Part shown: in pieces, positions 27,466-40,218 of the stretch | How positions within the stretch are numbered: position 1 is the stretch's first letter | Layout of the letters: each line of letters starts with the position of its first letter | From: Methanobacteriota archaeon | Lineage (GTDB): Archaea > Thermoplasmatota > Poseidoniia > Poseidoniales > Thalassarchaeaceae | Reading direction: 5' to 3' | Assembly: GCA_002718995.2 (NCBI GenBank) | Contig: PBGL02000007.1 | Coordinates: 2,306 to 66,305, forward strand | DNA length: 64,000 nt | Position numbers and translations under genes: made by a program | Notes under the pieces: generated by a model | Told to the model about the DNA's origin: nothing | The model's database searches: none | What the model saw: the letters and a program-made list of their open reading frames with translations, nothing else

Positions 27466-27579
27466 CGCAACGGAAGGGGGAAAATTGCTGGCGGAGCTCA
27501 ATATATGCTCAGACCGTAGGTCTGAGTGAGAATATGGGGCGAACGTTCAAGTGGGTTACGAAAACCAAATCTGACTCTG

Positions 27580-30500
27580 ATGACGGTAGCCGCTGACCCA
27601 AAACCCTCTCAAAAAAAGTTCGGGGCAGCTTTTGCTGTATTGATTATGCTCGCTATGTCGCTATCGCCGTTGGCGATAATGGCAGAGGAGAAAGGGAGTC
27701 TTGAAGGAGAATCGACTAGGATACTGACTTCTGGAATTGAACCATGGACGGATGGCGGGCAGGCCTGGCCTCAGCCAGGTAGGACGCCGGACAGGGTGTC
27801 CATTCCACCCCAGCATGTGCATTCTTCGGATTCGGGTGCGGGTCTGCTCTCAATAGTTGACCCTGCGATAAACTGGGAGTTTGGTTCCGATCAACTGGGC
27901 ACTGATTCCCTCGGAACCCCAATTGCTGATTTCTCATCATCCTTGACCACTGTCCCTTCCTCTGAAGAAAGGTGCGGAGGGGACTCGCTCTACACCATCC
28001 TCGTACAAACCGACTCTGCATCGGGCGAGAGTTACATGAAAATTATCGAGGGAGAAGACTCAGATTTGGCATGGGAAGTGAGCCTTGGAACGACAGAGAT
28101 GGTCAAGGCCTCTCCCGTAATTGTGGATTTGGATGACGATGGGAAGCCCGAAGTAATAGTGGCTTATGACCAAAGTGGAACCCTGCACGTGGATGCATGG
28201 TCGCCAAGGCTATTCTGCTCGGTTACCGGATGGGACCCCAGTGCAGGCAGTTCGCAGCAGCCAGTCTGGACATGGGAAGAAGACGACTTGATGATAAGCG
28301 GAGAGCCGACAAGCACACTGAATGGCCTTGGTGGCCATCGCCCAACGACGCAGCCTTTGCTTGCAGACTTGGATCTTGATGGTGATGCCGAACTAGTTCT
28401 GGCGGCAATTGATGAGAATAGCGGGGACCCGGTTGTTGTCGCACTTAGCCTCCCCTCGAGCGGGACACCCGCTACACTGTGGGAGAAGACTCTGGACAAG
28501 GGGAGTCATCCATCGGATCCAGCATTTGCGCAGACGGATGAGAATACTGGCTATGTTGTTCTTACCACCACGGAACACACGAATGGCGGCATGTGGGTTT
28601 GGAGGCTTGATTCTACTTCGGGCGATTCAGGCTGGGATGGGCTTAGTTTGAGTAACGTAGACGGCGACTCCGACGTCCCTCATATCAGACTACCCGGCCC
28701 TGTAGTGGCGAATCTTGATTCTGATGAAGCCCCCGAGATTATTGTCACCATCCCAACTGATGCAGATGGGTCTAACACGATAGATGGTGCTGAATTCAGA
28801 GGGCTAGAAATAAGCACTGGTTCTGAGATATGGTCATTTCAGGCGGAGAATGGGTACGCTGATGCGCCCCCTCTTGTTATTGATACGGACGATGACGGTA
28901 CAGTGGATAGGGTCTGTTGGGTCACTTGGTGGCAGACGGCAACAGCTAGGCACGGGGTCACGGGTTGCCATGACGTCGATGGCTCTAGTCCGGAAGAAGC
29001 ATGGCACAGGGACCTTGAACAGAGCAGTGGTTCCCCTAATGACGAGATCGCAGTCTCCCCTCCCATCTGGATGGATATCGATGGTAGTGGCGAGCCTGAG
29101 CTTCTGGTGGCCTATGGGAGATCACTTTGGGCATTCGACGGGGCAGAGGGAACCGGGGCTGCCATCAATAGCGATTGGACCAATGAGTTGGAGTTGAGTC
29201 ATCGGACCTGGTCGTCGCCTGCAATGGCTGACATCGATGGCGATCGGACCCTTGACATAGTCATTGGAAGTACTGTCGTATCCCTTGAGCGATGTGACGT
29301 TAGGCCGCTTCTTGATGGCGGAGGCATAGAGTTGGATCCAACTGCCCCTAGCCCGGGAGAGGAAGTTACAGTTTCTGCATTTATCGAAAACTCAGGAACT
29401 GGGCCAATAGACTCCGAATTTGATGCTGTACTCTATGCTGATGGAATAGAGATTGGAAGGAGGACATTTGCTTCTCTGGATCCTGTAGAGCCAACTGGAT
29501 CTGGTTCCTTTGACACATTCAGTGTTGAATGGTCTGGATCACTTGGGGACCATGAATTCGTACTGGAGCTGGACGGTTTTGGGAACCTAACTCAGACTAG
29601 GACAGACAATGACATTACGAGCAAGACGGTCTCCATTGTCCCTACTTACAATGCTACATTTGAAATTCCCGCCGAGCCAATTAGAGTTTCTCCCGGGAGC
29701 AGCATTACTGCTAGTCCCACTGTAAGATCGACTGGCCGGCTCTCTGGGACATGGTCCCTCAGCGTAGATGGTTCCGAACTTCCAGACGGCTGGACTTGGT
29801 CTGATGCCACTCCGGGGGGGATTAGCGGTATTGAGATAGGGGTAGATCAGACATGGTCCCCTGACCTTACCATATCTGCTCCATCGGAAGCTTTGGGGTC
29901 GGACTCAGGATACCTTTCAATGACGCTAACTCTTGATGAGGACTCGAACATCTCTGTTTCCGCGAACCTTCCGATTGAGGCAAACAGGACCAGGGGGCTC
30001 TCACTTAGAGGCCCCGACGGAACGGCACAGAGCAGTGGCTACGGCCTACCAGGGCAAGATGCATCATCATGGTTCATGATAGAGAATCTAGGGAATGCCG
30101 AAGAAGGTCAGATTCTTCTCTCTTGGGACAGCACCGCTTGGGGAAATGATCTACGCCTATATGATATGGAGGGCAATGAAAGATCGGCTTTAGTTCTGGG
30201 CCCTGGAGAGGAGTTGGCCCTAATGGCAACCATGGATGTCCCTTCGGACTCCTCTGTTGGAGATTCAGTTAGCACCCCCTTGACAATGTGTGTAGGTACG
30301 GGAACGGAAGAAGAGACTTGTCAGACGATACAATTGACATTCCATTCTTCAAATGTAGTTTCAGGGAAGCACATAAGGAGTGTTCCTGCGAATGGCCTTG
30401 AATGGACGGTGATTTCCGAAATGACCCCTGATAGTGGGACTCTTACATGGTCTCTTTCTGATATGGGAATGGCGATGCCCGGATGGTCTTGGGCGGGGAC

Positions 30501-33213
30501 TGGTGACCTTTCAGTTTCAGGAGATTCAATAATTATGACAGGGGCCCCGGGAGGGACTTCCTCTGGTTCGATTATTGCGAGCCTCCCTGAAGACGCGCCT
30601 CCAGCATTCCACTATTTCTCAGATACGAGTCAAGAGTCATCAGAGCACCATCTAATAATCACACTAGAGGTTTTACAGATTTTCAGAGCTAATGTGACTG
30701 TGATCTCGCCCCAGGAGCAGCCATATTTGGTTGAAGTGGAAGAGGGTTCGCTGGTGGTTCTGAGACTTGAGAATCCTGGAAATGGCTTAGACGAGTACTC
30801 CCTCAGCTACTCAGTTATCTTGGACTCCAATATTTCCAGTGACCCAGGGGTCGTTGTGCAGTTCTCGATTGGTCAAGTCGAGCTTACCCCGGGGAGCCTG
30901 ACCACAATACCGGTAACAGTGACCCTCCCCGAAAGCACTCCCGCAGGAGTGCCACTTTGGATCGAGTTCACTGTATCTTCAATGGGCGACGAGGGAGTCT
31001 CGTCGTCTGACATGGTGGCCCTTGAGGCAAGGCAGGACCATAGGTGGGACATAGTCGCTAGCGTCGATTCAGTACCCATGTCCAATGGGAGTGTTTTCAT
31101 CATTGACCCCGGCACGACATTCTCACTAGATGTTGGTGCGAAGAACACGGGTAATCTGGCGGACCAAATTAGTCTTGATGTGATGACCACGCTAGATCTA
31201 GTTGATGGTGATACTTCCACTGGTTGGGAATCAACGGGCGATTCAGCAGAGGAAGTTTCTGTGAATCAGACAGTTTCACTTAGCATTGATTCAACGGTTG
31301 CTGCTGAGTCTTGGAGTGGGTCATCTATGACCGTCACGGTTTCTGCGTCGGCCCAGGGAGAGGAGGTTTCAACATTCTCATTCACTATCGAGGCGGGTCA
31401 CGTACCATCTTGGAACGCGATAGGTGACCAGGCGAATCTTGAGATAGATCCACTGGGCTCAGAGATAGAGCTCACAGTTGTACAGTCTGGGAATTCACCA
31501 ACTAGGGCCTATGCATCCATGTTCATTACCGGTGAATCCGGATGGACCATAGGCGAGCCTGATGAGTTGCCCATACTTTCCCCAGGAGAAACTTCGCCAC
31601 TCATCCTCAATATCACGCCCCCTCAGAACGCAGTATATGGGAAAGCGGTAGAACTTCACCTCCGTCTCAGAGAAGGTGACTCAAGCGTAGTTTCTGAGGT
31701 AGTTTTCCCACTTAGGGTAGCAGTAACTCATGATTTCACCCTTTCGGGAGAAGGGGACTGGCTAGTGAGTGATCTAGGAGGGTACCCCTTGGCTATGATC
31801 GAGAATCTCGGTAATGCTCCTAGCACGATTTCCTTACAGGTTCTGAGTCTACCACTAGGATGGTCAGTATCGGGTAGGACTGAGGCTATCCTCGGGGTCG
31901 GCGAGGTGTCCGGTGTACCTCTTGAGTTAATGCCAAGCGAAGATTGGGACGGTAGTGTCAAGACTATTCGGATATTGGCGGAAGATTCGGCTGGAAACCA
32001 AAGAGAAATCAATCTGGATACCCGGAAGGGAGAGTTTTCATGGGCAACGTCCCCGGTCATCATCTCCACCAGCGGAGATAGTGCACTTTTGGAAATTCAT
32101 GGAACTGACCAGTCATCCAGCGTCACAGATTCTGATTCAGGAGAATTAGAGTGGAATGACCTAGGAGGTTGGGCTTGGCCTGCCTCATCTAGTGGAGTTG
32201 GAGTTATCGCAGTTTCATCTGGAGCTAATCAAGGTAGTTTGGATTATAGATCAATAGTGGTAGATCCGGCTAGTAGAAGCGCTAGTTGCTCCATCTACGG
32301 AACTGTTGGAGAAATTGTCGCTACATGTTCGATAGGCAACGGGACTGATCCTTTCGAATACACGATTATGTTAATCGATGACCTAGGGAATATGATGCAG
32401 TCCGAATCGGGCTCGGTAGGGAGAAATTCCTCGGCATTGGTTAACCTGACCTCTGAGGAATGGGAGCCCACCCCTGGGAATAGGGAGGTATCTGTTAGAT
32501 TGCTAGATTCAAGAGGAATCCTAGTGTCGTCCTACTCGCAGATTTACGAAGTGCGCCGAACGGATTGGAATGTCGGATTGGTGCAGCTAGAATTGGAAGG
32601 GCAAGGTTCGAGCCAGAAAATTGAAATCTCTACCAGAAGAGACAATTACGAACTACTTCCCTCGGGAACGCGGTGCAGTGTTTCCATTGTAGCAGGGCAG
32701 TACTCATCCGTGCACATCGTAGACATGACATCAGCAAATGCCCTTGCGCCAAAGCCATCCATAGATAGGCCGGATGTTGACGATGATATCGAAATGATTG
32801 CCACGATAAGTTGCGATTTCCCCTGGGATCAGGATTCCGATCCTTCGGATGATGAGGCCAGAATAGTGCTATCTGGAGGCGATGACTTTGAAGGAGGAAT
32901 TAGTGATTCTAGTACTGCCTTGGCCGCAGCTGCCATAGTCATAGGGACTTCGATTGCACTGTCATGGATGGTCAGTAATTACAGAGAGGGACGGGAGATG
33001 ATGGAGAAGACGAGATTGGCGGTTGAGAAGAAGGCGAAGGAGAAGAAGGCCGCTGTGGAAGAGAGACTGGTTGAAAGCGAGGAAGAGGCTTCCCAACAAA
33101 CTTCAGATGAAGAAGAGCCTCAAGATGAAGCCTCCGAAGATTCAGATTCCTCTGAATTACGTCAAGATGACTCATTCGAAAGTCGTCTAAACAGACTAAT
33201 GGGTGAAAGGTAA
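27580..33213 (+). CDS. Giant surface protein with FG-GAP propeller, CARDB and tandem Ig-like (NEW3-like) domains
   Basis: Signal/TM helix; SPVIVDLDDDGKPEVIV, LADLDLDGDAELV and SSPAMADIDGD repeats; CARDB-like (PSPGEEVTVSAFIENSG...TDND); repeated ENLGNA / ENPGNG / KNTGNL; C-terminal TM helix and charged tail. Confidence 0.82.
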   Translation: MTVAADPKPSQKKFGAAFAVLIMLAMSLSPLAIMAEEKGSLEGESTRILTSGIEPWTDGGQAWPQPGRTPDRVSIPPQHVHSSDSGAGLLSIVDPAINWEFGSDQLGTDSLGTPIADFSSSLTTVPSSEERCGGDSLYTILVQTDSASGESYMKIIEGEDSDLAWEVSLGTTEMVKASPVIVDLDDDGKPEVIVAYDQSGTLHVDAWSPRLFCSVTGWDPSAGSSQQPVWTWEEDDLMISGEPTSTLNGLGGHRPTTQPLLADLDLDGDAELVLAAIDENSGDPVVVALSLPSSGTPATLWEKTLDKGSHPSDPAFAQTDENTGYVVLTTTEHTNGGMWVWRLDSTSGDSGWDGLSLSNVDGDSDVPHIRLPGPVVANLDSDEAPEIIVTIPTDADGSNTIDGAEFRGLEISTGSEIWSFQAENGYADAPPLVIDTDDDGTVDRVCWVTWWQTATARHGVTGCHDVDGSSPEEAWHRDLEQSSGSPNDEIAVSPPIWMDIDGSGEPELLVAYGRSLWAFDGAEGTGAAINSDWTNELELSHRTWSSPAMADIDGDRTLDIVIGSTVVSLERCDVRPLLDGGGIELDPTAPSPGEEVTVSAFIENSGTGPIDSEFDAVLYADGIEIGRRTFASLDPVEPTGSGSFDTFSVEWSGSLGDHEFVLELDGFGNLTQTRTDNDITSKTVSIVPTYNATFEIPAEPIRVSPGSSITASPTVRSTGRLSGTWSLSVDGSELPDGWTWSDATPGGISGIEIGVDQTWSPDLTISAPSEALGSDSGYLSMTLTLDEDSNISVSANLPIEANRTRGLSLRGPDGTAQSSGYGLPGQDASSWFMIENLGNAEEGQILLSWDSTAWGNDLRLYDMEGNERSALVLGPGEELALMATMDVPSDSSVGDSVSTPLTMCVGTGTEEETCQTIQLTFHSSNVVSGKHIRSVPANGLEWTVISEMTPDSGTLTWSLSDMGMAMPGWSWAGTGDLSVSGDSIIMTGAPGGTSSGSIIASLPEDAPPAFHYFSDTSQESSEHHLIITLEVLQIFRANVTVISPQEQPYLVEVEEGSLVVLRLENPGNGLDEYSLSYSVILDSNISSDPGVVVQFSIGQVELTPGSLTTIPVTVTLPESTPAGVPLWIEFTVSSMGDEGVSSSDMVALEARQDHRWDIVASVDSVPMSNGSVFIIDPGTTFSLDVGAKNTGNLADQISLDVMTTLDLVDGDTSTGWESTGDSAEEVSVNQTVSLSIDSTVAAESWSGSSMTVTVSASAQGEEVSTFSFTIEAGHVPSWNAIGDQANLEIDPLGSEIELTVVQSGNSPTRAYASMFITGESGWTIGEPDELPILSPGETSPLILNITPPQNAVYGKAVELHLRLREGDSSVVSEVVFPLRVAVTHDFTLSGEGDWLVSDLGGYPLAMIENLGNAPSTISLQVLSLPLGWSVSGRTEAILGVGEVSGVPLELMPSEDWDGSVKTIRILAEDSAGNQREINLDTRKGEFSWATSPVIISTSGDSALLEIHGTDQSSSVTDSDSGELEWNDLGGWAWPASSSGVGVIAVSSGANQGSLDYRSIVVDPASRSASCSIYGTVGEIVATCSIGNGTDPFEYTIMLIDDLGNMMQSESGSVGRNSSALVNLTSEEWEPTPGNREVSVRLLDSRGILVSSYSQIYEVRRTDWNVGLVQLELEGQGSSQKIEISTRRDNYELLPSGTRCSVSIVAGQYSSVHIVDMTSANALAPKPSIDRPDVDDDIEMIATISCDFPWDQDSDPSDDEARIVLSGGDDFEGGISDSSTALAAAAIVIGTSIALSWMVSNYREGREMMEKTRLAVEKKAKEKKAAVEERLVESEEEASQQTSDEEEPQDEASEDSDSSELRQDDSFESRLNRLMGER

Positions 33214-34812: not shown

Positions 34813-35790
34813 TCAGTCCTTTCTGAGCACTTCTCTCACTATGAATACTGAAAGTACGAATATTGCAACTATCCTCAAATCGAATTCGGATTCCTCCTCC
34901 TGTGGCTTCTGGGAGTCGAATAATTCCATGGCAGAATCTATCTCAGGAGATTCTGAAGAAGAAAGAATCACAGTTCCCCCAACATGGTACGGAGATGACG
35001 AAATGAAGTCTCCGGGAATCTGATCTTGCTTCACCGAAGACATTGCGATGTCACAAAGATCAGACTCGGACAAGTCACTTAGGGAATTGTCGAACACTCC
35101 GCTATCGTGAGTGAAAAGCGTTAATTCGACCTCATAATGACTGGCTATGCTATTCATAATCAATTCTGCCATATCAACCTCGAAACCGACTAACTCTCCG
35201 TTATTTCCATACCTAGTCATTGGTGACTCTTGGTCCAACATACAGACTCCCAAATCCGAATCCTCGTACAGTATTCTATGAAGCGTACCGCCTTCGGTGG
35301 GTGTAGGCCATGCATCCTCATAAGACTCGAAATCTGAAAAATCCAACTGTGGCCTGTCAGCGAACCAAAGTTGGTGTGTCGAAATTGCTGTTCCCCTCTG
35401 ATGAATATCCGCCAGCGCGGAGTTGACTGCGTACCTCAGTTCGTCGTTCCCCAATTCCTGGGAATTATCCGATCTAATAATCGCGACGAAATAATCAGAA
35501 ATATCAAACATCTCATCTACGGCAATTGTGGGCCATTGAGCGATTACCTCGGAATCGGCCATTAAATGATGCGGGCCAATTAAGAAGTCAACTTCCCCGT
35601 CCCTTAGTGATCTAATCGCAAATTGCACATTCTCAAACTCCATTTCCTCTAAGTCTGAATTCTGAGCTATGAAATGTGAGGACCCTTCTTCCGAAATAGT
35701 GCCAATTGAATAGATTGCTTCACCTGAAGCGACAAGCCAAGAAGAAGAGAGCAAAATCGGGACGATTAGCACAGCGGCAATCCCCCTCAT
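34813..35790 (-). CDS. Family-3 (polar amino acid) solute-binding protein, circularly permuted, C-terminally anchored
   Basis: The C-half motifs (AIRSLRDGEVDFLI, ELRYAVNSALADI...GT...WF) come before the N-half motifs (TLHRIL, P...NGELVGFEVDMAELI, CDIAMS, SSPY). Signal peptide and C-terminal TM helix are present. Confidence 0.75.
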   Translation of the reverse strand: MRGIAAVLIVPILLSSSWLVASGEAIYSIGTISEEGSSHFIAQNSDLEEMEFENVQFAIRSLRDGEVDFLIGPHHLMADSEVIAQWPTIAVDEMFDISDYFVAIIRSDNSQELGNDELRYAVNSALADIHQRGTAISTHQLWFADRPQLDFSDFESYEDAWPTPTEGGTLHRILYEDSDLGVCMLDQESPMTRYGNNGELVGFEVDMAELIMNSIASHYEVELTLFTHDSGVFDNSLSDLSESDLCDIAMSSVKQDQIPGDFISSSPYHVGGTVILSSSESPEIDSAMELFDSQKPQEEESEFDLRIVAIFVLSVFIVREVLRKD

Positions 35791-35920
35791 GAACGAATCA
35801 AGGAGTGTTTTGACTTAGAATTGGCGGTCCGCCTAGACTATATCCAAGGAAGAATGCCAGACATTGGGGCTCACCATGCTTGAAGGGAATTCTCGGCTCT
35901 CCAAGCCAAGGAGGGGGAGT

Positions 35921-38059
35921 ATGTCGGCTCGGACAGTTTGCGTTGCCATAGTGATTCTTCTACTGACTTCTGTAAACCCTAGTCAAGCTACTGAATTTGA
36001 GAGTAGTTGGGAAATTGTAGAAAGCGGGACATCTGAAGATTTGCTGACCGCTGCTGAATTTGAGGGGGAGGTTTGGGCGTTTGGAACTGCGGGCGTCATG
36101 CTACGCAGTGGTGATAACGGGGCTTCATGGACGGTTTACGAATCGCCGACCACAAGTGATATTCTGAACTCGGCCTCGGGTTTTGGTTCCTTGCTAATCT
36201 CCGGAGATTCTGGATTGGTACTCCTCAGGGAAAGTGAGAGCGATTCGTGGATCGATATTTCACTCCCAGAAGAGGATTCCGTAAATGGGATCTCGTTGAC
36301 TGGCAGCGATACAGCCGTGGCAGTAGGAAATCATGGGACAATATGGAATCTGGATGGTGGCGTCTGGACGGAGACCGCTCTATCCATAGAAAGTGACCTT
36401 CTTGATGTGTCATTCCTGGATGAGGAACTAGGAATAATAGTCGGTTCCGAGGGGACGATTCTCTTTTCCGAAGATGGAGGAGAAAGTTGGGAGTATCGTG
36501 AGTCGCCCGAGGGAGCTGCCGGTGCAGTTATTGTGTCAGTAGAGTTCTACAGCCCCACTCGAATTTATGCCATTACAGATGATGGGAGGGTCCTTATCTC
36601 GATGAGCAATGTAGTTACTGGGACTGATGTCGGATACATATGGAATCTTGTTGAGTTCGAGAGACACTACCCTCCAGGAACAAATGAGTACATCCTAGGG
36701 CCAGAGAAACTAGACGTACAATTGACCTCTATCGAAGTGGTTACAACGTCTAAGTTCCTGATGACGGGAGATGGGGGTTATATCTCCATGAGCGTCAATG
36801 GTGGGACGATAGTTTCGCAGCAGATTAACCCCCTTGGAAATAACAGTAACTTCAACGATATTGTGATGGTGACCGGATTCACGGGCGTGGCTGTCGGAAA
36901 CGAGGGTAAAATCCTGTGGACAGAAAATGCTGGTGCAGACGATCAAGCGGGATTCGTAGTTCCTGAATACGGGAACTTCGGAGTATTTGTTGATGAGACA
37001 AAGGCCATGTTCCTATCCGGATTTATCGCGACGCTGAAGATAGTAGCATTTGGAATTGTTCTGGGCTTTCTTCTGGGAGTTACCCTGGCAATGTGCAAAA
37101 CATCACCAATTTCACTAAGGAACGTCGTAGAGCGATATGAACCGAAATATGTCAGAATCATTGGAATACCCCTACTGGCTGGCGGACTGCTGCAAATCTA
37201 CTCCGCCATTCCGGGAGCGAGTGGTCTTGGACTTCAGGGTATTGAGTACATCTTCCTCCCAGTCGGGGCACCTGTTTCTTTTGCTAAGATTCTCTTAGGG
37301 ATAGCGCTAATATTCATTGGCACACTTTTCATTAGCAACGACAATAAATTTTCGAAAATCAATATTGGCCCATTTACATTGAATCCTTGGAGAGTAAGGC
37401 CACTGAATGCCATAGCGACAGTTTACACTGACTTCTTCCGTAACACCCCCTTAATTGTGCAGTTCCTATTCATACACTTTGGACTTCGGCTAGGGGCACT
37501 AATTCAAGGTCCCGGATTGGAGATTTTTAGCTTCGAAAATTTGGAAAATAATCATAATTTTATGACAGACATTATTGCCACATATGATCATTCAGAGGGC
37601 AATTATGGAACACTGATCGGCGGTGTTCTATACGACTCTGCTTTCATCAGTGCGATATGTGCTCTGGGATTCAATTCGGGTGCCTACCAATGTGAAACTA
37701 TCAGGGGCGCGATACAGGCGATCCCATCTGCCCAGATGGAAGCTGGCAGGAGTATTGGCCTAACCTATCTTCAAACCATGCGAAGAGTGATCATGCCACA
37801 AGCAATCAGAATCTGCATCCCTCCAATGGGCAATGAGATGGTCAATCTTGTACTAAACTCATCTCTTGCTATGATTATAGGATATGCTGAGTTGACTAGG
37901 CAGGGGAAGTTGATAGTCGCTAGTACGTTCCAATATGCATATGCTTGGGGGATGGTTCTGATTTCTTACTTCGTGGTGACGTGGACTCTTGCCCTGATAC
38001 TCAGATGGCTAGAGGAAAAAACTAGAATTCCAGGATTGGGGATAACTGGGGGTGATTGA
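35921..38059 (+). CDS. Fusion of a YCF48/BNR beta-propeller and a HisM/GlnP-family amino acid ABC permease
   Basis: Signal peptide; Asp-box repeats RSGDNGASW, FSEDGGESW and MSVNGG; permease motifs YTDFFRNTPLIVQ, AYQCETIRGAIQAIPSAQMEAGRSIGL and NSSL. SD GGAGGGGGAG before ATG 35921. Confidence 0.88.
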   Translation: MSARTVCVAIVILLLTSVNPSQATEFESSWEIVESGTSEDLLTAAEFEGEVWAFGTAGVMLRSGDNGASWTVYESPTTSDILNSASGFGSLLISGDSGLVLLRESESDSWIDISLPEEDSVNGISLTGSDTAVAVGNHGTIWNLDGGVWTETALSIESDLLDVSFLDEELGIIVGSEGTILFSEDGGESWEYRESPEGAAGAVIVSVEFYSPTRIYAITDDGRVLISMSNVVTGTDVGYIWNLVEFERHYPPGTNEYILGPEKLDVQLTSIEVVTTSKFLMTGDGGYISMSVNGGTIVSQQINPLGNNSNFNDIVMVTGFTGVAVGNEGKILWTENAGADDQAGFVVPEYGNFGVFVDETKAMFLSGFIATLKIVAFGIVLGFLLGVTLAMCKTSPISLRNVVERYEPKYVRIIGIPLLAGGLLQIYSAIPGASGLGLQGIEYIFLPVGAPVSFAKILLGIALIFIGTLFISNDNKFSKINIGPFTLNPWRVRPLNAIATVYTDFFRNTPLIVQFLFIHFGLRLGALIQGPGLEIFSFENLENNHNFMTDIIATYDHSEGNYGTLIGGVLYDSAFISAICALGFNSGAYQCETIRGAIQAIPSAQMEAGRSIGLTYLQTMRRVIMPQAIRICIPPMGNEMVNLVLNSSLAMIIGYAELTRQGKLIVASTFQYAYAWGMVLISYFVVTWTLALILRWLEEKTRIPGLGITGGD

Positions 38060-40218
<2,159 letters not shown>

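Follow-up and report, generated by a model that had tools for sequence, protein, structure and literature searches.

A Ycf48-like beta-propeller on the permease of a predicted amino-acid-type ABC importer, encoded beside a circularly permuted binding protein in Thalassarchaeaceae

In Art(QN)2-ArtJ of Thermoanaerobacter tengcongensis (PDB 4YMS-4YMW; ArtJ 4YMX), one permease gene and one ATPase gene specify a homodimeric type I ATP-binding cassette (ABC) importer, which is served by a receptor of the SBP_bac_3 class. GlnPQ of Lactococcus lactis (binding domains PDB 6H30, 4KQP) is likewise a homodimer, in which a signal peptide and SBP_bac_3 domains are joined by a short linker to the N-terminus of the permease; each transporter hence carries two copies of the ectodomain. 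Ycf48/HCF136 (PDB 2XBG, 5OJ3, 5OJ5, 5OJP, 5OJR, 8AM5) is a lipid-tethered, seven-bladed propeller with a central channel, whose Arg patch docks on the lumenal face of the polytopic protein D1, as described in PMC10403576. We analysed a 64,000-nucleotide stretch (hereafter referred to as the window) of contig PBGL02000007.1 (positions 2,306 to 66,305, forward strand; assembly GCA_002718995.2) from an archaeon of the family Thalassarchaeaceae (Marine Group IIb, MGIIb). A single open frame at 35864..38059 (+) encodes 731 amino acids counted from its TTG codon and comprises a signal peptide, a beta-propeller and an ABC permease. It is followed by an ATPase gene and faces the divergently oriented gene of a circularly permuted substrate-binding protein (SBP). 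This architecture is real, and it is widespread in a globally abundant group.

The association of these parts in one frame, which an earlier note on this DNA had read from the letters as a signal peptide, a propeller and a HisM/GlnP-type permease, was borne out by the frame itself, by Pfam and by alignment to ArtQ. A domain scan placed both families above their Pfam cut-offs in the same protein (PSII_BNR, PF14870, 53.9 bits for a cut-off of 27, in the N-terminal part; BPD_transp_1, PF00528, 67.5 bits for a cut-off of 26.4, in the C-terminal part). The gene had been drawn at 35921..38059; its end stands, but 35921 is an internal ATG giving a 712-amino-acid form. ATG 35876 (MLEGNSRL...) is the likelier start, because the N-termini of homologues line up with it. 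Residue numbers below refer to the 712-amino-acid form starting at 35921, in which the signal peptide occupies residues 1-24, ending in SQA, and the propeller residues 25-345. The features of the locus are as follows.

34813..35790, minus strand: circularly permuted SBP of 325 amino acids with a C-terminal membrane anchor (Pfam SBP_bac_3, NCBIfam, AncQR alignment).
35791..35875, no strand: divergent intergenic region between the SBP gene and the permease gene (sequence reading).
35864..35992, plus strand: N-terminus and cleavable-type signal peptide; candidate starts at TTG 35864, ATG 35876 (likeliest) and ATG 35921; the hydrophobic core ends with SQA before TEFE.
35993..36955, plus strand: Ycf48/BNR-like beta-propeller ectodomain, about 321 amino acids, seven repeats, two strict Asp-boxes (PF14870, Ycf48 structures, blade model).
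36956..37105, plus strand: short tether, conserved segment (FGxFVDxxK) and first transmembrane helix (TM1) of the permease (aligned to ArtQ residues 4-48; hydropathy).
37106..37396, plus strand: MGIIb-specific insertion with two extra transmembrane helices and a conserved outer loop (LGLxGIExIFxPVGxP), then an NPWxVRP motif (ArtQ alignment, hydropathy).
37397..37501, plus strand: canonical TM2 with an FRNTPLIVQF motif (aligned to ArtQ residues 47-85).
37502..37636, plus strand: enlarged outer loop between TM2 and TM3, about 45 extra residues (ArtQ alignment).
37637..38059, plus strand: TM3, EAA coupling loop (about 37733-37810), TM4, TM5, conserved C-terminal RIPGLG tail and stop codon (aligned to ArtQ residues 87-215).
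38060..38836, plus strand: GlnQ-like ABC ATPase of 258 amino acids (PF00005, NCBIfam, motifs in the translation).

The best PSII_BNR stretch spanned only profile positions 8-104 of 303. A hidden Markov model built from three blades identified seven repeats, at residues 31-70, 74-110, 112-149, 153-190, 203-226, 267-295 and 305-338, with independent E-values of 1.6e-17, 2.4e-3, 1.8e-15, 2.9e-19, 0.094, 0.03 and 4.9e-6, respectively, blades 5 and 6 being weak. The predicted seven-bladed form rests on this repeat count and on homology to Ycf48. Ycf48 structures matched the family profile with E-values of 1e-23 to 1e-18 in blade-shifted alignments, and the score for the Ycf48 equivalog NF010237 (52.3 bits) lay below the cut-off of 326. 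We class the propeller as Ycf48-like and not as a Ycf48 orthologue. A mapping of the Arg patch of Ycf48 onto the propeller was abandoned because of the blade shift. R193 is invariant in 21/21 rows of an alignment of MGIIb and Marine Group III (MGIII) sequences (A3). R214 is invariant in a second alignment (A1) and at least 90% conserved in A3, and the invariance of R248 is confined to A1, with its 22 MGIIb sequences.

The earlier note had quoted four Asp-box motifs and proposed that the propeller captures peptides or particle-bound polymer and presents the products to the pore. Of these, only SGDNGASW (at 63) and SEDGGESW (at 183) are strict Asp-boxes, and the propeller has no others; the remaining two quoted motifs correspond to the GxxGxI strand motif of the blades. 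A related explanation would make the propeller an enzyme, sialidase- or glycosidase-like or a peptidase, which frees small substrates from polymers at the pore. BNR/Asp-box propellers do include glycosidases, and there was a weak NCBIfam match to the F510_1955 family glycosylhydrolase (30.5 bits for a cut-off of 175). A HMMER search with the propeller alone returned 23,087 relatives; those matching end to end in a single stretch were the archaeal fusions and a few fragments, and the remainder were large secreted bacterial multi-propeller proteins. The nearest non-fused relatives are proteins of this bacterial kind with type IX secretion system sorting domains, a kinship that also speaks for an enzyme. 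Nevertheless, the Pfam search of the fusion protein gave no match to the BNR, BNR_2 or sialidase families at E ≤ 0.01, the strict Asp-boxes number only two, and the Ycf48 proteins, which match best, are not enzymes. Gly and Trp account for most propeller columns that are invariant in both MGIIb and MGIII, and no catalytic or ligand signature was found in the propeller. We regard an enzymatic role as very improbable.

The membrane domain was best matched, among solved structures, by ArtQ (PDB 4YMS, E 1.5e-43), in three colinear blocks corresponding to TM1 (profile 358-403, ArtQ 4-48), TM2 (497-534, ArtQ 47-85) and TM3-TM5 (580-708, ArtQ 87-215). About 93 extra profile positions fall exactly between TM1 and TM2 (ArtQ 48 / 47); they contain two hydrophobic helices by hydropathy, joined by a conserved loop, and the addition of two helices would preserve the topology. 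About 45 further positions lie in the outer loop between TM2 and TM3. The EAA loop is intact (EAGRSIG-x9-VIMP) and aligned with that of ArtQ. The earlier description of an intact EAA loop, an insertion of about two helices after the first and an enlarged loop was thus confirmed by the ArtQ alignment and hydropathy. The best NCBIfam matches over residues ~590-722 were to GlnP (the top match, 121.3 bits for a cut-off of 303), cystine (TcyL-type), EhuC and HisM permeases, all far below their equivalog cut-offs, and we assign the permease to the polar-amino-acid (ArtQ/GlnP/HisM-type) family without equating it with any named permease. In the 118 homologues parsed, the loop between TM2 and TM3 fell into length classes of 44 or 62-64. 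The idea that a loop between blades 5 and 6 touches the permease insertions was dropped for want of covariation: in the 118 of 120 homologues that could be parsed, the spacing of the blades stays at 44-47 whatever the lengths of the insertion and the loop.

The start codon of the ATPase directly follows the stop codon of the permease. The ATPase matched PF00005 (E 7.5e-39) and contains the Walker A, signature, Walker B and H-loop motifs; its best NCBIfam match was GlnQ (284.8 bits, below the cut-off of 379 bits). We are confident that the system is a homodimeric type I ABC importer of the ArtQ/GlnP type with two propellers at its outer face; its (permease)2(ATPase)2 stoichiometry is inferred from the presence of one permease gene and one ATPase gene.

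The propeller occupies the N-terminal extracytoplasmic position at which GlnP-type permeases carry their binding domains, as had been proposed; only ~14-20 residues separate its last blade from the canonical permease start. No SBP_bac_3 domain was detected by Pfam or NCBIfam in the N-terminal 345 residues, where PSII_BNR was found instead. The earlier note had concluded that the propeller stands in place of a binding domain. That conclusion fails, because an SBP_bac_3 gene with a ratio of nonsynonymous to synonymous substitutions (dN/dS) of about 0.07 lies divergently adjacent, an association seen in 21/21 MGIIb loci selected by an SBP match and in 8/8 MGIII loci with sufficient upstream DNA. 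This gene matched Pfam SBP_bac_3 with 36.9 bits (cut-off 26.4), profile positions 3-97 falling at residues 182-284, and the C-terminal parts of NCBIfam profiles matched residues 45-144. When aligned to AncQR (4ZV1), the SBP family profile covers chain residues 126-231 with its positions 32-144 and residues 24-116 with its positions 193-293, so that the two halves are swapped, and other solved amino-acid binding proteins gave the same swapped alignment. The neighbouring SBP is circularly permuted. Its chain runs from a signal peptide through the canonical C-terminal half, a linker with a conserved WPTPTEGG, the canonical N-terminal half, an acidic spacer and a conserved FDxR to a transmembrane helix; the new C-terminus (about canonical residue 116) leads directly into this anchor, which is conserved. 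A profile search for the permuted family returned 500 clusters at E ≤ 1e-5. Among the 120 listed, 222-325 amino acids in length, 119 cover 86-100% of the query colinearly, and one (P0128, 222 amino acids, 68%) is a fragment; the named clusters among those listed belong to Poseidoniia or Poseidoniales. We are confident that the genome of the window has a dedicated, membrane-tethered, permuted receptor.

A second permuted protein is encoded elsewhere in this genome (contig C8, locus L013:2091-5225, minus strand). It has 1044 amino acids, a lipobox-like N-terminus and the domains SBP_bac_3, ANF_receptor and Peripla_BP_6, and it adjoins Liv-type permeases that share one fused open frame, about 1250 amino acids long. 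Its SBP_bac_3 domain was cut at another point, canonical residues ~70-116 being followed by 126-231, a YPSPSEG linker and then ~24-56, and it keeps the canonical Arg and Asp. The YPSPSEG linker resembles the WPTPTEGG of the SBP in the window, and this shared linker suggests that both permuted forms may come from a tandem-domain ancestor. The same genome also has a second amino-acid ABC system (contig C14, L009:2460-8213, minus strand), with an AapJ-like SBP of 412 amino acids and oversized permeases of 699 and 517 amino acids, in which BPD_transp_1 fills only the C-terminal part. The AapJ-like SBP was rejected as a relative of the permuted SBP (hhalign probability 2%).

In the protein database, 435 of the scored candidates were relatives of the fusion at E ≤ 1e-3. 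Both Pfam domains are present in nearly all of the 120 relatives listed; four of these, with matches over just 59-70% of the query, have a single domain. The fusion was present in 131/226 species-representative genomes of Thalassarchaeaceae, spread over six of 13 genera (21/21, 25/27, 16/18, 11/13, 21/21 and 36/44 genomes), and was not found in the other seven genera within these 226 genomes. Among 401 genomes sampled from across the phylum, the propeller joined to TM1 occurred only in Thalassarchaeaceae (23/36, plus the genome of the window) and in the MGIII family of the same class (4/10); it was seen in 0/58 genomes of family f3, the other large family of the order, taken as MGIIa (Poseidoniaceae). 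A fusion confined to this assembly, for which the earlier note had left room, can thus be set aside, and the fusion is not an assembly artefact. A full-length SBP homologue was detected in 26/226 genomes of the family, and 26/26 of these also carry the fusion. The MGIIb locus is syntenic across six genera (hyp208-purC-[SBP]-fusion-ATPase-GDH-HD protein). The head-to-head order SBP(-), permease(+), ATPase(+) was observed in 21/21 fetched MGIIb loci, which had been chosen by SBP match. The purC gene lies directly upstream of the fusion in L011, L012 and 12 of 13 later loci (L031-L043) and was not seen there in L010 and L043.

The same three genes, in the same arrangement, were found in 8/8 MGIII loci with enough upstream DNA, four of these being the same contigs seen twice. 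The MGIII SBP is colinear with the MGIIb SBP family (hhalign 98.9%), indicating that it is permuted too. The MGIII permease has the plain five-helix form, with a fusion of 606-619 amino acids and neither the hairpin insertion nor the long loop. As the same trio occurs in MGIII, the SBP, the propeller-permease and the ATPase were probably together in the ancestor of MGIIb and MGIII. The propeller seems to have coexisted with a canonical-looking receptor in this common form, which argues for an accessory rather than a replacement role. On balance, we lean towards reading the locus as a whole as a three-gene importer in which the propeller is an accessory ectodomain and not a replacement receptor.

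Two further observations concern MGIII. Its permuted SBPs (L028:2255-3223, minus strand; L029:3456-4415, plus strand) end with PGL or PSL, a hydrophobic helix and RRR, as opposed to the FDxR that precedes the helix in MGIIb. The MGIII terminus resembles a PGF-CTERM archaeosortase signal, and the anchoring chemistry of the SBP may differ between MGIIb and MGIII. In addition, a 7.7-kb contig binned as Gemmatimonadetes (L045) encodes a propeller-permease 99% identical, and an ATPase 93% identical, to those of MGIII; it is most likely a mis-binned archaeal contig rather than a case of transfer. A scan with the MGIII protein, which detects close relatives only, returned no Asgard sequence.

In eight close genomes, dN/dS was lowest in the core membrane domain (0.009), followed by the long loop (0.028) and the ATPase (0.031), and reached 0.069 in the SBP ectodomain, 0.072 in the propeller and 0.077 in the hairpin insertion, ratios that are rough because dS (0.9-1.7) is near saturation. 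The propeller, the SBP, the permease and the ATPase are under purifying selection. In four runs, RNA-library contigs lay on the propeller part and on the ATPase, and one (37885-38225) bridged the permease stop and the ATPase start, which is weak evidence given that DNA carry-over is possible in such libraries. These contigs covered only small shares of the window, so that the lack of any on 34841-35827, the SBP region, is uninformative for the SBP.

Two groups of observations weigh against an accessory propeller in a three-gene importer, one concerning the absence or alteration of the receptor and the other the separate histories of receptor and fusion. A linked SBP gene was not found in 105/131 fusion-bearing genomes, a count that is inflated by the incompleteness of metagenome-assembled genomes (MAGs). 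Likewise, the fetched flanks of 16 loci contained no SBP gene (L010-L012 by open reading frame list, L031-L043 by BLAST with three SBP types as queries), and the transporter thus evidently persists without a dedicated SBP neighbour. The SBP of the window also lacks the canonical Arg and Asp, which, following HisJ and LAOBP, we take to anchor the alpha-carboxylate and alpha-amino groups of the ligand. The Arg column (S-x-T-x-x-R) holds Ile in 19/19 MGIIb rows of alignment A4, and the two MGIII rows keep Arg there. At the Asp position (GxxD-x4-D, after the hinge motif), the alignment has Pro in the group of the window genome, Ser or Thr in genus g17, and Asp in genus g4 and MGIII. As the residues that normally hold an alpha-amino acid are lacking, the ligand of this transporter may not be a standard free amino acid.

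These findings bear on a second explanation, according to which the propeller itself is a substrate-capturing or gating receptor in an importer that is becoming, or already is, independent of its SBP, the permuted SBP being a degenerating or non-canonical helper that docks and activates without delivering. The missing linked genes leave some room for the capture role of the earlier note, and at least four changes in SBP presence or absence are required on an MGIII-rooted tree of 40 fusion proteins. No spare SBP of the polar-amino-acid type exists in four SBP-less genomes, which include one assembled as a single contig of 1.6 Mb; their only SBP_bac_3 genes encode AapJ-like proteins and a ~1040-amino-acid multi-domain protein beside Liv-type permeases. 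The loss of the canonical Arg throughout the MGIIb rows and of the Asp in the window genome, and the gain by MGIIb permeases of a hairpin and outer loops that MGIII permeases lack, fit this explanation as well. A precedent exists in the non-canonical mechanism of MetNI-MetQ, with an SBP that does not deliver, and in binding-protein-independent MalFGK2 mutants, which offer a model for a working type I importer whose SBP lacks intact ligand anchors or is missing altogether (PMC6233128). However, purifying selection acts on the SBP of the window as strongly as it does on the propeller. In MGIII, moreover, the propeller coexists with an SBP that keeps Arg and Asp and is conserved to the same degree as the fusion (59-67% against 52-59% identity), so that the propeller did not originate as a replacement. 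The propeller has no identified ligand-binding signature, and MAG incompleteness lowers the weight of the missing genes. We consider SBP independence unlikely. Four propeller columns (T43, P76, L102 and G123) are invariant in 16 SBP-bearing rows and kept in at most 31% of 16 SBP-less rows, and no columns of this kind were found in the membrane domain of the same rows; these SBP-linked columns are only a lead, since the SBP-bearing rows are closer kin.

The second group of observations concerns phylogeny. In the fusion tree, which conflicts with genus labels, the group of the window was nested in genus g17, next to L016, and SBP-less members of its own genus lay elsewhere, whereas the SBP tree followed genera. 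In approximately unbiased tests, the monophyly of either genus was rejected by the fusion data (p = 7.4e-5 and 8.9e-51), and the groupings of the fusion tree were rejected by the SBP data (p = 3.2e-4 and 4.0e-4), p-values that are weakened by the naming of the tested groups after the trees had been seen. Pairwise identities are discordant in the same manner: L016 and L014, from the same genus, are 82% identical in the SBP, 43% in the propeller and 60% in the membrane domain, and the window and L016 are 37%, 71% and 88% identical, respectively. The SBP is the fastest-evolving part in MGIIb: beyond the subclade of the window, its identity to the SBP of the window is 29-37%, compared with 48-88% in the membrane domain and 75-88% in the ATPase. 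At one syntenic site, the fusion types range from 48 to 88% identity to the window in the membrane domain and from 33 to 73% in the propeller, and the flanking genes are evenly diverged (purC 69-79%, ATPase 75-88%, GDH 80-87%). These discordant pairs and even flanks indicate an exchange, independent of the SBP, of divergent propeller-permease types at one fixed position, and such decoupled histories argue against a tightly co-adapted interface between SBP and propeller.

In a further explanation, the propeller would have a role outside transport proper, as a module contacting the envelope or a partner, or as a Ycf48-like assembly or stabilising factor, and its exposed types may be swapped between lineages, for example under virus pressure. 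The deep divergence of types between uniformly diverged flanks, the conflict between gene tree and genus labels, the two types in one MAG (G178) and the function of Ycf48 itself, an assembly factor that docks on a membrane protein, are all consistent with this proposal. Within a type, however, the propeller is under purifying and not diversifying selection (dN/dS 0.072), and the retention of its fusion to a transporter subunit across MGIIb and MGIII points to a role tied to transport. We hold a role outside transport to be improbable, and slightly more so than SBP independence. The MAG in question (97% complete, 3% contamination; contigs C53 and C23) contains fusion types 80% and ~44% identical to that of the window; either both coexist in one genome or the bin mixes strains.

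For an importer with an accessory propeller, we favour the following mechanism. Each permease chain would be exported by means of its cleavable-type signal peptide, and the short tether before TM1 would bear the seven-repeat, Ycf48-like propeller, placing two propellers at the transporter's outer mouth. Five canonical helices, the added helical hairpin and the longer outer loop make up the membrane domain. The permuted SBP, held by its C-terminal helix, would dock on the outer face of the permease dimer and trigger ATP-driven transport, both steps being modelled on Art(QN)2-ArtJ. The most likely function of the propeller would be structural. Much as Ycf48 docks on D1, the propeller may rest on the outer loops of the permease and form a vestibule or docking frame beside the tethered receptor.

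More speculatively, the propeller could be a new kind of receptor or gate for ABC importers, these archaea preserving a stepwise hand-over from binding protein to propeller; we think this rather doubtful. The steps would be represented, again with little confidence on our part, by MGIII, with a propeller and a canonical-looking permuted SBP; by the window genome and its kin, with an SBP that is under selection but lacks the residues for holding an amino acid; and by most MGIIb lineages, with no dedicated SBP and with the added hairpin and loops. If this hand-over were true, it would represent a natural, binding-protein-independent type I importer in which a fold other than that of an SBP performs capture or gating.

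Two textbook rules for type I ABC importers are broken here at once, in that the membrane subunit carries an ectodomain other than an SBP and a C-terminal helix anchors a receptor that is permuted. Related lineages form a natural series from receptor-dependent to apparently receptor-less forms, making it possible to test the old question of whether the binding protein is needed for delivery or for gating. Current annotations of the parts ("ABC transporter permease subunit", "YCF48-related protein" and "amino acid ABC substrate-binding protein") hide this unusual design. Marine Group II is among the most abundant archaeal groups of the surface ocean and presumably feeds on organic nitrogen, both dissolved and particulate. 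Its most transcribed genes include those for amino-acid uptake (PMC9723583). We found no published description of a propeller-permease fusion, or of its pairing with a permuted, helix-anchored receptor, in a search that covered few subscription journals and no supplements of MGII genomics papers.

Further upstream in the window, 27526-33213 (+) encodes an acidic surface protein of 1895 amino acids, which combines FG-GAP-like, CARDB and NPCBM-associated domains with a helix at its C-terminus and a charged tail. Large open reading frames with a similar C-terminal motif occupy the corresponding upstream position in two relatives. A search of the ESM Atlas with 35921-38059 gave look-alikes with scores near 0.8, combining BPD_transp_1 with PQQ_2/WD40 (Bacillota), or with WD40/ANAPC4 and PSII_BNR+DUF6242_C (Chloroflexota). 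These clusters are leads only; if they are real, fusions of propellers to permeases arose several times.

Among known systems, Art(QN)2-ArtJ shares with this locus the pairing of one permease gene with one ATPase gene, the EAA loop and the class of receptor. ArtQ differs in having no ectodomain, no hairpin between TM1 and TM2 and only a short loop between TM2 and TM3, and ArtJ, which is soluble or lipid-anchored, has the canonical chain order, unlike the permuted receptor with its C-terminal helix. GlnPQ resembles the fusion in its signal peptide, in having an ectodomain that a short linker connects to the N-terminal end of a GlnP-type permease and in its two ectodomain copies, and its binding domains match the family profile of the neighbouring SBP. 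In GlnPQ, however, it is the SBP_bac_3 domain that is fused, whereas here the fused domain is a propeller and the SBP is separate, permuted and anchored. Natural permuted binding proteins are already known. Tp0684 (MglB-2) of Treponema pallidum is reportedly an ABC binding protein whose natural permutation leaves its fold and role intact; it differs in belonging to the glucose/galactose-type class, in its cut point, in its N-terminal lipid anchor and in having no propeller-bearing permease as partner. MetNI-MetQ belongs to the MetI family and has no propeller, and the evidence comes from engineered or mutant proteins and not from a natural, lineage-wide state. Ycf48, the closest solved relative of the propeller, agrees with it in a repeat count of seven, two of the repeats here being weak, and in being a membrane-tethered propeller that docks, as proposed here, on the extracytoplasmic face of a polytopic protein; in the archaeon, a heterotroph that presumably has no photosystem II, the tether is a covalent fusion to the transporter.

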